This document shows, piece after piece, positions 16,668 to 20,030 of a stretch of 64,000 nt of DNA. The DNA is from Escherichia coli. GTDB lineage: Bacteria > Pseudomonadota > Gammaproteobacteria > Enterobacterales > Enterobacteriaceae. Where the stretch lies: NCBI RefSeq assembly GCF_016026235.1, contig NZ_CP065613.1; one strand, written 5' to 3'. The stretch's first letter is position 1. The number at the start of each line of letters is the position of its first letter. The position numbers were made by a program, and so were the translations under genes. The notes under the pieces are model-generated. The model made no database searches. It saw only the letters and a list, made by a program, of their open reading frames with translations, and was not told the origin of the DNA.

Positions 16668-17213
16668 TTATTTTAAGGAAAGCAACTGCTCTACGGTCAT
16701 GTTTTTAATTGCGCCCCGGTTTACAAGAGTCCAGCCCTGTTTTTCCAGATAAAACCGGAAAGTCTCCAGGGTACAGACCAGTGCGCCATCAGGAACGGTT
16801 TCGGTGAATTCGACATTGCCGAATTTGTCGAAGTGAACAACCAGAGTGCGACCATCACCCGGAATCATCTTGTCAGCAGGTGGGGTGTTATTCTGGCGCA
16901 GTTCGGCCTCCATGCGGTCGAACTCAGCAATGTAGGCTTCCTTGAATGTGGCGGCTTTTTTGCCCGTGAAGCCCATCACCAGGAAAACGAAGCCGTTTTT
17001 GGTGATTTGGTAGGCGTTATAAGAATTGCCGCGGTGTTCGAATTTAACCCGCGAAAAGTTGCTGGTTAAAAATAGTTCAGAACATTCGAGGGATTCTATT
17101 TTTTGAACAACATGGTGATGCTGCTTGCCAAAAAACTCAGCAATCGAAATAGAAGTAGTGACGGCGCGACCATTTTCGATGGTTACGTCAGGGTGAGAAA
17201 GGGTAGTAGCCAT
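16668..17213 (-). CDS. Rha-family phage regulatory protein / antirepressor-like
   Basis: MATTLSHPDVTIENGRAVTTSISIAEFFGKQHHHVVQKIESL… resembles the Rha N-terminal domain; GAGGA 7 nt upstream of this Met; the ORF extension to 17507 contains a terminator. Confidence 0.55.
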   Translation of the reverse strand: MATTLSHPDVTIENGRAVTTSISIAEFFGKQHHHVVQKIESLECSELFLTSNFSRVKFEHRGNSYNAYQITKNGFVFLVMGFTGKKAATFKEAYIAEFDRMEAELRQNNTPPADKMIPGDGRTLVVHFDKFGNVEFTETVPDGALVCTLETFRFYLEKQGWTLVNRGAIKNMTVEQLLSLK

Positions 17214-17378
17214 AATGACATCCTCAAGTGATAAGTTAATTAACTCACCAGCAGAGGTGCTAATCTCATGGGTGGTGAGACGCACAGGGTTAGCACTACC
17301 GGTCACTCGAGAACCCGGCCAGCCTTGCGGCTGCCCCGCACGCCTCACCATAATTTGAATGTGGCTGTGCATTACGCA

Positions 17379-17402
17379 TAAAAAAACCGCTTCAGCGCGG
17401 TT
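17379..17402 (-). terminator. Rho-independent terminator (minus strand)
   Basis: Minus-strand read AACCGCGCTGAAGCGGTTTTTTT; lies inside the upstream extension of the Rha ORF. Confidence 0.45.
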
Positions 17403-17529
17403 ATGCGCTCGAGTAACTTTCGGGGTGCTAATCCCGGCACCCGTTTTATGAGGTGCAGGTGCACTATAATTCCACCCGTTCTGGTTTTCAATAGCTACAT
17501 TCAACATTTTCTCTTTCCTTTCATCACCG

Positions 17530-17684: not shown

Positions 17685-17920
17685 TAAAAAGGGCGGACAT
17701 CAGCCAGCAATTAAACCGATGCCGCCAACTGGTACTTCACACAGCAATGTCGTTATTTACAACCGGAAGCGCACTCCCACCATTTAAATTTCACAGACAA
17801 GACCGACTCTTTATGAATACCGGAAATGCGCCTTCGTGTTGTGCCCGGTTTTATTTCACCACCTCCGGGCTTTGGTGGTATCTTTACTGAAGTTCTCACA
17901 CAACCAGTAAGGAAATGAAT

Positions 17921-18238
17921 ATGCCAACGTATCTCGCCAGAGTAGAACTATATAATGCTGAGCCAGAGGATTACGAAGGGCTTCATAAATATATGCTCTC
18001 ACTAGGATTCAGGAGAACGATCCCCCATGGAGATGGTTCGTATAATCAACTCCCGGACGGAACTTATGTTTCCGAAAAGGGCGGTGATATTTATCAAATT
18101 CGCAGCCAGATATCTGACTATGCAGACCGACTATCCGGGTATCGCGCGTCTGTTTTGTTTGCGAATTCAGTCAATGCGCATGGTATTTATACCCCGCCAA
18201 GACCCGGTGAATATCCTGCACGGCCTTCTGCTTTGTAG
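17921..18238 (+). CDS. Hypothetical 105-aa protein encoded against the direction of the early-left operon
   Basis: AAGGA SD 7 nt before ATG at 17921; MPTYLARVELYNAEPEDYEGLHKYMLSLGF…; converges on the ydaF-like gene. Confidence 0.5.
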   Translation: MPTYLARVELYNAEPEDYEGLHKYMLSLGFRRTIPHGDGSYNQLPDGTYVSEKGGDIYQIRSQISDYADRLSGYRASVLFANSVNAHGIYTPPRPGEYPARPSAL

Positions 18239-18391: not shown

Positions 18392-18547
18392 TTACTCACC
18401 TGAATGTCTTCCCAACCAACGACGTGCGCCAGCTTCGGTTTTAAACGTTTTGCTTTTGGTATACGTCATGGCGGTGAATGTGCCGTCTTGATTGGGAAAC
18501 ACGCCACATACCAGAGATTCGTTGTTGCCAAGATCGATAGTATTCAT
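18392..18547 (-). CDS. Small phage protein, YdaG/YdfA-like
   Basis: 51 aa MNTIDLGNNESLVCGVFPNQDGTFTAMTYTKSKTFKTEAGARRWLGRHSGE, resembling small early-left proteins of Rac/Qin as I recall them. Confidence 0.45.
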   Translation of the reverse strand: MNTIDLGNNESLVCGVFPNQDGTFTAMTYTKSKTFKTEAGARRWLGRHSGE

Positions 18548-18744
18548 GTTGACCCCATTTCCCCTTAACGCCGGGTGGCGGAACGTTTTATCTACTGCGC
18601 TTTGTATCAATCAACAACTGCCGTCATGTTCGTATGCCTCAGGCTGGCTACTTAGCCCTGTTCAGTGACTGGATAACTCGAGGTATTGTCCTGCCGTTCT
18701 CTGGTGGGGCGTTGTTTGGATATGCTTATTAAACACAATTTGTT

Positions 18745-18775
18745 TTCTTATGTCAACACGTAATGTGTTTTATGG
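18745..18775 (-). promoter_or_regulatory. Candidate early-left (pL-like) promoter with operator AACAC-N5-GTGTT
   Basis: Minus-strand TTGACA, 17-bp spacer, TTTAAT; overlapping half-sites at 18755..18769. Confidence 0.4.
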
Positions 18776-18799
18776 TGGGTGTCATATGATGATGCTACA

Positions 18800-18830
18800 A
18801 AAAAGCCCGCTGATAGCGGGCTGATTGGCA
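18800..18830 (-). terminator. Rho-independent terminator downstream of the repressor gene (minus strand)
   Basis: Minus-strand hairpin CAGCCCGCTATCAGCGGGCT followed by TTTTTT. Confidence 0.45.
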
Positions 18831-18852
18831 TATTACTGTGATAGCAAGATCA

Positions 18853-19272
18853 TTATTCCGGTGGGGGATTATCTTTAATCCTGCCTCTCAAATATTTTTC
18901 TACATACTCATCGATTTCTTTTAGCCGGACTTCAAATAGCTCAATCATTCGTTGTTGTTCTGAGCCCGGTAGCTGGTTAAACAACTCAAGAAGTTTTCGT
19001 TGGGATTCATTTAACCACAATTCAGAAGATTCCTGTTCTCCAAAGAGGAGCTCAGGAGGAGATATGCCAAGTGCCTTTCCCAATACGACAGCGTCATGTA
19101 CTCCAACATTTCTGCTGCCCGCCTCATAGTTACCTATACGCGATTGCGTCCATCCGCAGATTTCAGCAAGTTTTCCTTGAGATAAACCAAGCTTCTGCCT
19201 GCGCTCTTTAAGACGCATTGCAATTTTGTCATTGAGCCTACTAGCGGCAATTTTTTCGTTTTCTTTTTCCAT
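18853..19272 (-). CDS. Prophage repressor (HTH, CI/RacR-like)
   Basis: 139 aa; N-terminal XRE-type HTH (LGLSQGKLAEICGWTQSRIGNYEAG); divergent from a Cro-like gene. Confidence 0.7.
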   Translation of the reverse strand: MEKENEKIAASRLNDKIAMRLKERRQKLGLSQGKLAEICGWTQSRIGNYEAGSRNVGVHDAVVLGKALGISPPELLFGEQESSELWLNESQRKLLELFNQLPGSEQQRMIELFEVRLKEIDEYVEKYLRGRIKDNPPPE

Positions 19273-19283
19273 TGCATCCTTGT

Positions 19284-19298
19284 ATCACGAATCGTGAT
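19284..19298. promoter_or_regulatory. Perfect 15-bp palindrome ATCACGAATCGTGAT in the repressor/cro intergenic region
   Basis: Directly upstream of the repressor start codon. Confidence 0.35.
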
Positions 19299-19318
19299 TT
19301 ACATAAAACACAAAACAG

Positions 19319-19351
19319 CTTGACTATATAACACAAGGTGTGTTTAAAATT
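19319..19351 (+). promoter_or_regulatory. Candidate pR-like promoter with operator AACAC-N5-GTGTT
   Basis: TTGACT, 17-bp spacer containing AACACAAGGTGTGTT (19330..19344), then TAAAAT; same half-sites as at 18755..18769. Confidence 0.45.
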
Positions 19352-19368: not shown

Positions 19369-19611
19369 ATGAACAAAATTTCAACATATCGAAAACAGCT
19401 TGGGCTGTCTCAAAGACAACTTGCTGTTCAGTTAGGGTGGATACAAAGCCGACTGGCAAATTACGAAGCAAATTTTCGTACCCCTGGACTAGAGGAGTGC
19501 AGAAAAATTGTTTCTACCCTTAATCGGCTTGGCGCTCATTGTGGACTTGACGATGTATTCCCCCCAGACGGTAAGCATAGCGAAAACAGCATAGGAGCGG
19601 TTGATTCATGA
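19369..19611 (+). CDS. Cro-like HTH regulator (YdaS-like position)
   Basis: 80 aa with HTH (LGLSQRQLAVQLGWIQSRLANYE); first gene of the rightward operon. Confidence 0.6.
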   Translation: MNKISTYRKQLGLSQRQLAVQLGWIQSRLANYEANFRTPGLEECRKIVSTLNRLGAHCGLDDVFPPDGKHSENSIGAVDS

Positions 19612-20030
19612 AAATCAGGCATGAGCACATCGAATCAGTGTTGTTAGCCCTGGCAGCCGAAAAAGGGCAGGCGTGGGTCGCTAACGCAATTACTGAAGAA
19701 TATCTGCGCCAGGGGGGAGGTGAATTGTCTCTGACACCAGGCAAGGACTGGAATAATCAGCAGAACATCTATCATCGTTGGTTAAAAGGTGAAACGAAAG
19801 CGCAAAGGGAAAAAATTCAGAAACTGATCCCTGCGGTTCTGGCAATTCTTCCGCGCGAGCTGCGTCACCGACTCTGCATCTTCGATACCCTGGAACGCCG
19901 TGCATTACTGGCGGCGCAGGAAGCGTTGAGTACGGCAATTGATGCGCATGATGATGCAGTCCAGGCCGTTTACCGGAAAGCGCATTTCAGCGGCGGCGGG
20001 TCTTCCGACGATTCTGTCATTGTTCATTAA
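19608..20030 (+). CDS. YdaT-like protein (CII-position regulator)
   Basis: 140 aa, same length and position as Rac YdaT; 4-nt overlap with the cro-like gene. Confidence 0.55.
   Translation: MKIRHEHIESVLLALAAEKGQAWVANAITEEYLRQGGGELSLTPGKDWNNQQNIYHRWLKGETKAQREKIQKLIPAVLAILPRELRHRLCIFDTLERRALLAAQEALSTAIDAHDDAVQAVYRKAHFSGGGSSDDSVIVH

Follow-up and report, generated by a model that had tools for sequence, protein, structure and literature searches.

A probable lambda-like, five-site operator set around the gene of a short DicA-like repressor in an Escherichia coli prophage

To define the operators of an Escherichia coli prophage immunity region, we investigated a 64-kb stretch of DNA (hereafter, the window, meaning the whole stretch at its full length), in which the gene of a 139-aa helix-turn-helix (HTH) repressor lies opposite a gene for a cro-like protein. 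Comparisons of this region with its relatives make a lambda-like switch highly probable, in which repressor dimers would occupy a set of five 15-bp sites, all of one class, A(A/T)CAC-N5-GTG(T/A)T. Two of these sites, OL1 and OL2, are located at the early leftward promoter, PL, and three, OR3, OR2, and OR1, at the repressor promoter and the early rightward promoter, PRM and PR. The sequence, geometry, conservation, covariation, and homology are shown directly; binding, cooperativity, the position and activation of PRM, the preference of the cro-like protein, and the route of induction are those parts of the switch that we infer.

Operator sites and their conservation

The repressor gene and the cro-like gene diverge from a 96-bp intergenic region, as is characteristic of lambdoid phages, and the five sites are distributed on both sides of the repressor gene as follows.

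18732..18746: OL1, a weaker operator, AACACAATTTGTTTT (AACAC AATTT GTTTT); a one-mismatch match to the motif that covers the PL spacer and the edge of the PL -10
18755..18769: OL2, a perfect operator, AACACGTAATGTGTT (AACAC GTAAT GTGTT); an exact motif match that overlaps the PL -35 by 2 bp
18853..19272, minus strand: repressor gene, 139 aa, encoding an HTH_3 N-terminal domain and a helical C-terminal domain
19284..19298: OR3, a perfect palindrome, ATCACGAATCGTGAT (ATCAC GAATC GTGAT)
19307..19321: OR2, a weak operator, AACACAAAACAGCTT (AACAC AAAAC AGCTT); one half good and the other degenerate, sharing 2 bp with the PR -35
19330..19344: OR1, a perfect operator, AACACAAGGTGTGTT (AACAC AAGGT GTGTT); an exact motif match that fills the PR spacer
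19369..19611, plus strand: cro-like (YdaS-like) HTH gene, 80 aa, with GGAGG at 19358-62

An initial annotation of this region had named OL2 and OR1, the two AACAC-N5-GTGTT sites, as operators at divergent early promoters flanking the HTH repressor gene, opposite the cro-like gene, and every sequence that it named was recovered at its place in the window. At the level of sequence, its reading of these two sites as operators is well supported: the half-sites are invariant, the central N5 drifts, and the outer dinucleotide tracks the recognition helix of the repressor. The ATCAC palindrome, which had been described as separate, is instead the OR3-equivalent of the same operator class, since in relatives its distance from the repressor ATG is fixed at 14-15 nt, and since the operators of lambda also mix ATCAC and AACAC halves. 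The simple two-operator layout that had been proposed was right in both of its sites and incomplete, as it missed OL1 and OR2. The center of OL1 is 23 bp from that of OL2, and the center of OR2 is 23 bp from those of both OR1 and OR3; because OL1 and OR2 are each 23 bp from a strong site, the arrangement is a lambda-type 2+3 layout rather than a simple two-site one.

The exact motif, AACAC-N5-GTGTT, occurs only twice in the 64-kb window, at OL2 and OR1, and allowing one mismatch adds OL1 and one distant site. The broader form, A(A/T)CAC-N5-GTG(A/T)T, occurs three times in the 64 kb, with all three sites falling within 590 bp around the repressor gene, where the expected number for the window is 0.29; none of 100 shuffled sequences reached three such sites. 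The bare core, CAC-N5-GTG, showed no enrichment window-wide (12 observed vs. 16.7 expected), and three of these 12 cores fall in the 590-bp immunity stretch. A repeat search with a 6-bp seed detected nothing, because the operator arms are only 5 bp long. For the LexA box, CTGT-N8-ACAG, there was no exact match in the whole window, degenerate boxes not having been searched for, and no antirepressor promoter under LexA control was identified. A third OL site was also considered and rejected: 20-24 bp past OL2, only a poor half (ATCAT), in a stretch that differs among the variants, could be read by eye.

Conservation of the sites was assessed in a comparative set of 160 related loci from two IMG/VR scans, which detected ~880 relatives in all, together with several phage records. 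This comparison across related prophages, which the initial annotation had suggested as a check, returned invariant half-sites and a drifting N5, both in near-identical relatives and at 61-68% protein identity. Among 25 distinct window-type OR variants, none of the 25 strong half-site columns varied, compared with 21 of 46 other intergenic columns (Fisher p = 1.8e-5). Specifically, both halves of OR1 and of OR3 and the AACAC half of OR2 were invariant, and the center of OR1 was variable. Similarly, in 30 window-type OL variants, all 10 half-site columns of OL2 were invariant and four of its five central columns varied, and OL1 showed an invariant left half and a nearly invariant right half (GTTTT) around a variable center.

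The more diverged relatives retain the same positions. At the OL1 position, they keep a site with its good half on the opposite side, and at the OR2 position, relatives have 7-9 of 10 matches as read by eye (for example, AACCCGTATAGTGTT and AAAACGATGTGTGTT), the OR2 of phage mEp213 being TACACGATTTGTGTT. Relatives that are 61-68% identical in protein and share the helix xQSRIGNYE have perfect AACAC/GTGTT sites at OR1 and OL2 with an unrelated N5, and they also carry A(C/T)CAC-N5-GTG at 14-15 nt from the start codon of the repressor. Overall, CAC-N5-GTG was present at both the OR3 and the OR1 positions in 89 of 92 distinct relatives, with the OR3 site 8-18 nt from the start codon. Because the central N5 varies freely, and because diverged relatives in which the N-terminal extension of the repressor is wholly absent keep the same operators, these comparisons suggest that only the outer 5 bp of each operator half are read.

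Covariation of recognition helices and operators

The outer dinucleotide of the OR1 half-site changes with the recognition helix of the repressor, in the following combinations.

Repressor helix xQSRIGNYE: OR1 half AA-CAC (74 of 74)
Repressor helix S..(S/P)R.ANYE: OR1 half TT-CAC
Repressor helix SGSSRIANYE (pPE4-type): OR1 half CT/TT-CAC
Repressor helix ATASRVGNYE: OR1 half G(A/T)-CAC

In OR3, the proximal half follows the Cro helix, with ATCAC accompanying ..ANYE and ACCAC accompanying ..SNYE whatever the repressor, and the distal half is of the repressor type in most relatives. Between the window-type and pPE4-type loci (L002, L080, and L084), the segment 18725-19368 has been swapped, whereas the flanks are 100% identical, as is the cro-like protein. 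The pPE4-type repressor has 62% identity to that of the window and carries one extra residue in the recognition region; its operators have CTCAC/TTCAC halves. OR3 retains its ATCAC half, and the joints of the exchange map to the PL -10 and the cro ATG.

The Klebsiella phage Kp4865-4 (L005) provides a negative control. Its repressor carries the C-terminal domain of the family, including the motif LFxQLPExEQ...YVEKYLRGR, on a different HTH, and the phage has no CAC-N5-GTG sites, carrying instead palindromes of the TTTAT-N7-ATAAA type (TTTATAGCCACAATAAA and ATAAACCTATGCTTTAT). This combination of the same C-terminal domain with an unrelated HTH indicates that the DNA-binding and C-terminal domains shuffle independently. 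Phage mEp213 shows the converse, namely a window-like HTH on a LexA-like C-terminal domain.

The exchange between window-type and pPE4-type loci, in which repressor and operators are swapped together and an identical Cro and the ATCAC half of OR3 are kept, would fit a split code. We offer this only tentatively and hold it to be somewhat unlikely: the repressor would read the outer dinucleotide of OR1, OR2, and OL, and the cro-like protein would read the more widely shared ATCAC half, concentrated in OR3. If true, a Cro protein could act in trans beyond its own prophage, on heteroimmune members of the family that reside in the same cell, and lambda-type proteins might also touch the window sites, whose outer 5 bp match lambda half-sites.

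Repressor, promoters, and the proposed switch

The N-terminal domain of the repressor matches Pfam HTH_3 (E = 4.6e-13; 49.4 bits vs. a cutoff of 23), and an AlphaFold2 model (predicted local distance difference test score of 87.9) shows an HTH domain of five helices and, behind it, a C-terminal domain of 50 residues that is helical throughout. In Foldseek, structural neighbors were found for the HTH domain alone, and comprise C.AhdI and the N-terminal domains of P22 c2, 434, and lambda cI. Against the N-terminal domain of lambda cI, the repressor shows 31% identity (E = 2e-6), with LGLSQ and the Gln-Ser of the recognition helix in register, and the equivalents of lambda cI Q33, Q44, and S45 are aligned. 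In lambda repressor-operator structures, these cI residues contact the outer operator bases, which serves here as an analogy only. The C-terminal domain has no sequence match in the PDB, and Pfam returned no Peptidase_S24 match in the protein, which thus does not have the LexA/S24-type C-terminal domain of RecA-stimulated autocleavage. The repressor is therefore cI-like at the DNA, and its C-terminal half is not of the cI/LexA family. The cro-like protein also matches Pfam HTH_3 (E = 6.7e-10; 39.3 bits vs. a cutoff of 23), and its HTH is 45% identical to that of the repressor over 42 aa, with a recognition helix of QSRLANYE compared with QSRIGNYE.

The following promoter elements, and a hairpin whose equivalent is also found after the repressor gene in relatives, were located around the operators.

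18728..18733, minus strand: PL -10 candidate, TTTAAT, with a 17-bp spacer from TTGACA
18751..18756, minus strand: PL -35, TTGACA, conserved in relatives and lying within the 12-mer TTATGTCAACAC that is shared with lambda PL/OL2
18804..18822, minus strand: terminator-like hairpin after the repressor gene, with 8 pairs, 6 of them G-C, then TTTTTGT
19279..19287, minus strand: candidate PRM extended -10, TGaTACAAG, overlapping the left half of OR3 and placed from lambda geometry
19320..19325, plus strand: PR -35, TTGACT, with the same sequence and offset (50-55 nt from CAT) as the lambda PR -35
19343..19350, plus strand: PR -10 region, TTTAAA (19343-48; 17-bp spacer) or TAAAAT (19345-50; 19-bp spacer)

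The minus-strand TTGACA/TTTAAT promoter, which the initial annotation had described as overlapped by OL2, is a credible PL, as it has a 17-bp spacer and is conserved across the family; diverged relatives keep ATTAAA at the -10 position, including those in which the operator half that overlaps it has degenerated. For PR, the annotation had proposed TTGACT/TAAAAT with OR1 in the spacer. The -35 is secure, since most relatives keep TTGAC(T/A/C) here and a few decayed prophages carry mutations, and OR1 does lie in the spacer, whereas the -10 assignment is less certain. TAAAAT is a better -10 hexamer than TTTAAA, yet it gives an atypical spacer of 19 bp and is not conserved in relatives, in contrast to the 17-bp register, which is kept as TTTAAT, TTTTAT, or TTTAAC (TTTAAN) at the offset of lambda GATAAT; the choice between the two hexamers is ambiguous. 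Separately, some IMG/VR copies with the exact repressor of the window (the L006 and L008 groups) have TTTAAC or TTGGCT in place of the PR -35 TTGACT, with all operator half-sites intact, possibly a sign that the lytic promoter has decayed or been silenced in cryptic prophages.

The PRM candidate occupies the same position relative to the repressor ATG as the lambda PRM -10, TAGATT, and a GTG(A/G)TA(A/C)AA motif recurs in relatives. A transcript from this promoter would be expected to start at the repressor ATG, and would thus be leaderless, as has been reported for the paaR2 and cI transcripts (PMC8630535).

In the proposed switch, a dimer of the 139-aa repressor would bind the 15-bp operators, reading only the outer 5 bp of each half. 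OL1, as a weak site, and OL2, as a strong one, would bracket the PL -35 and cover the spacer. Likewise, OR1 would be a strong site in the PR spacer, OR2 a weak and probably cooperatively filled site over the PR -35, and OR3 a site that abuts the repressor start codon. Repressor at OR1/OR2 and at OL1/OL2 would shut off the early rightward genes (the cro-like, ydaT, and replication genes) and the early leftward genes, respectively. With its center 42 nt ahead of the repressor ATG, which is the lambda distance, OR2 would be placed to stimulate a weak, probably leaderless PRM, which occupancy of OR3 would shut off. The cro-like protein, with a recognition helix nearly the same as that of the repressor, is predicted to bind the same sites, and it would probably prefer OR3, a site with ATCAC halves that depart from AACAC at the equivalent of lambda position 3. 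As the repressor carries no LexA-type cleavage domain, induction would probably proceed through an antirepressor.

Several observations weigh against this switch. OR2 has only one good half, with 7 of 10 matches, and the right half of OL1 is GTTTT; occupancy of both sites is assumed to hinge on cooperativity. The covariation rests on ~8 independent helix/operator lineages, counted without phylogenetic correction. The -10 hexamers of PL and PR do not have the usual A at position 2, and a consensus promoter scan, whose rules specified this A and a spacer of 16-18 bp, called neither promoter, since TTTAAT has no A at position 2 and the TTGACT/TAAAAT spacer is too long. Upstream of the repressor ATG, window-type loci have a motif resembling a Shine-Dalgarno sequence, AAGGA, which fits oddly with a leaderless PRM transcript, and which could serve transcripts from a YdaT-dependent PRE. 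Furthermore, YdaS does not repress racR in Rac (PMC9638921), and Cro-like behavior is hence not guaranteed. No binding, footprint, or transcript-start evidence for the repressor of the window was found in the searchable literature, and searches on AACAC/operator, H-19B operators, DicA, RacR, and PaaR2 returned no description of this operator type.

That OR3, OR2, and OL1 stand at exact 23-bp intervals and at lambda offsets, with good halves that are invariant among the variants, argues against a reading that restricts the repressor operators to the two perfect AACAC-N5-GTGTT sites, assigns the ATCAC palindrome to another protein (the cro-like protein only, or a host or other prophage factor), and takes OL1 and OR2 to be nonfunctional. 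We consider this reading improbable, although it would account for OL2 and OR1 being the only perfect AACAC palindromes, for the poor half in each of OR2 and OL1, and for the OR3 halves that follow the Cro helix and not the repressor helix in relatives. On this last point, most relatives have a repressor-type distal half in OR3. In both mEp213 and lambda, ATCAC, AACAC, and ACCAC halves occur together within single operators that one repressor binds.

A far smaller chance is given to the sites being operators of the cro-like (YdaS-like) protein alone, with the 139-aa repressor recognizing something else. The two recognition helices are indeed closely similar, and the cro-like protein is identical in phages whose operators differ in outer bases only; however, it is with the repressor helix that the outer dinucleotides of OR1/OL2 change between the window-type and pPE4-type loci, under an identical Cro, and the operator class itself changes where the repressor HTH has been replaced, as in Kp4865-4. 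The cassette, moreover, holds no other repeated motif. Lastly, the short, 5-bp arms and the absence of a window-wide enrichment of the bare CAC-N5-GTG core would be compatible with the palindromes being chance features of A+T-rich intergenic DNA with no regulatory role. This explanation is effectively refuted by the comparative data, in which half-sites are invariant while flanks drift, positions are kept in 89 of 92 distinct relatives, and sites covary with recognition helices; the shuffles, with zero of 100 reaching three sites, agree. The lambda-like switch with five operators is thus the reading that we retain.

Prophage context and comparison with known systems

In a lambdoid (Rac/Qin-like) E. 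coli prophage, the segment 18725-19368 very probably forms an immunity cassette that can be exchanged. An O121 chromosome carries the immunity region at 100% identity, and at least 80% of the region is present in 152 of 5426 complete E. coli genomes (~3%). To the right of the cro-like gene, two further features were identified.

19601..19618: YdaT operator-like inverted repeat, TTGATTCATGAAAATCAG, with one mismatch to TTGATT-N6-AATCAA, spanning the cro-like stop and the ydaT start
19608..20030, plus strand: ydaT-family gene, a functional equivalent of cII (Pfam YdaT_toxin; PHROG 163)

The ydaT-family product matches YdaT_toxin (E = 2.4e-11; 44.4 bits vs. a cutoff of 21) as well as the CII-like activator family PHROG 163 (E = 1.1e-36). 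Its gene directly after the cro-like gene, together with the site at their junction, gives the region a right arm of the ydaS/ydaT type, with replication genes lying further right. A footprinted YdaT site is found at the same location in CP-933P (PMC9986795), and the YdaT-type site at 19601-18 implies a PRE-like leftward promoter nearby.

To the left, the first gene after PL is DUF1391/ydfA-like, and the gene order resembles that of dicA-ydfA-ydfB-ydfC in Qin. This DUF1391 open reading frame (ORF) was called by program at 18392-18610 on the minus strand, with 72 aa and a TTG start; the RefSeq coding sequence is shorter, corresponding to 18392-18547, and has an ATG start. A 107-aa ORF at 17915-18238 on the plus strand runs against the PL operon, and its product matched nothing in Pfam.

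Between PL and the DUF1391/ydfA-like gene lies a conserved non-coding leader (window 18548-18721, minus strand), which is also present in loci L003, L005, and L071-L163. Its blocks, AGTAGC..GGCAWACGAA..GCAGYAG..GTTCSG, span ~115 nt in the commonest type and occur in order in 98 of 164 fetched loci, and the leader is present, unannotated, in phages ST64B, SfV, SfII, mEp237, SPN3UB, and others. It had no match in Rfam even at E <= 5 and no similarity to the PL/putL region of HK022, and the single sequence folded no better than shuffles (z = +1.26); its terminal hairpin shows compensatory changes, with weak to modest covariation overall. Because no N gene was seen beside PL in the phages that carry it, the leader is possibly a cis-acting RNA, serving as an antitermination or processing element.

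Further left on the minus strand (window 17268-17456 and 16668-17213), a 279-aa ORF annotated in RefSeq as a Rha family protein contains, in its 5' part, Rfam matches to C4 antisense RNA, at 78.6 bits, and to isrK, at 68.5 bits. The Rha domain begins only after an ATG at ~17213, the Rha-domain protein being that at 16668-17213, and the annotated start of this protein is probably too far upstream. The arrangement resembles P1 immI (c4/ant) or the Gifsy isrK module, and may constitute an antirepressor system for the non-cleavable repressor.

Of the known systems, lambda provides the closest geometry. Measured from the A of the repressor start codon, the OR centers lie at 19/42/65 in the window and 19/42/66 in the annotated lambda record. 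Both have three OR sites at 23-24-bp intervals that overlap PR and, in the window by inference, PRM; both also have operators of the same class at PL, with two in the window. The PR -35, TTGACT, is at an identical offset, and TTATGTCAACAC, comprising the PL -35 and the start of OL2, is common to both. The lambda half-sites, ATCAC, AACAC, and ACCAC with weaker variants, are the repertoire of the window. The core of lambda OR2, AACAC-CGTGC-GTGTT, is itself an instance of the motif in the initial annotation, and the lambda consensus core, ATCAC-N5-GTGAT, is that of the OR3 palindrome. The HTH domains are homologous, with Gln-Ser opening the recognition helix. The differences are that CCGC is conserved in the lambda consensus halves, whereas the central 5 bp in the window are unconstrained; that the repressor has a short helical C-terminal domain instead of an S24 autocleavage domain; and that cII is replaced by YdaT. 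In addition, the cro-like protein and the repressor are HTH_3 paralogues, whereas lambda Cro has a different fold.

DicA of Qin is a full-length homologue of the repressor (29% identity; E = 2e-15) that shares the C-terminal motif LFNxLPxSEQ and is likewise short and non-cleavable, with an antirepressor implicated in derepression. The NCBIfam DicA model, NF007257, gave 57.3 bits against a cutoff of 101, aligning residues 15-133 of the repressor to 4-131 of the 135 model positions; the repressor is a homologue, and not an orthologue, of DicA. The DicA operator, Oc (TTGTTAGTCATAACTAACAA; TTGTTAG-N6-CTAACAA), differs in both specificity and geometry, and no Oc-type site was present in the cassette sequence as read, without a pattern search for Oc.

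The PaaR2/YdaS/YdaT system of CP-933P and the RacR/YdaS/YdaT system of Rac resemble the window in having a cro-like HTH gene followed by ydaT, with a YdaT site at the junction. Four inverted repeats and three overlapping "operators" have been footprinted in the OR of PaaR2/YdaS (PMC8630535), and three inverted repeats in that of RacR (PMC9638921), with a lambda-like logic drawn in both cases. However, the repeats of PaaR2, of the GTTTAGTAA type, and those of RacR, (T/A)TAGGC-n3-GCCTA(T/A), are unrelated to the window operators, and no toxin-antitoxin genes follow the repressor of the window. The only Rac repressor matched, from the phage Rac record (annotated as dicA), is 28% identical to that of the window.

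The same operator class was found at the same positions in mEp213, whose HTH is 58% identical, and in the mEpX1/VT1-Sakai cI group, with 49% identity in the HTH. The plaque-forming mEp213 has three OR and three OL sites that mix ATCAC, AACAC, and TACAC halves. These repressors, of 213-216 aa, differ in having a LexA-like, cleavable C-terminal domain, and their operators are unannotated in the phage records examined.

In summary, the window case leaves the understanding of the lambda-type switch unchanged and adds a well-supported further example of a known design, with lambda operator geometry and half-site vocabulary extending to short, non-cleavable, DicA-like repressors. It provides a testable, base-resolution operator map for an uncharacterized immunity type, related forms of which are present in many enterobacterial phages. 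With the table of helix/operator covariation, a start is made on predicting immunity specificity from sequence alone, along with possible cross-talk among co-resident prophages. The main value of the region lies in its base-for-base match to lambda and in its readable helix/operator code.

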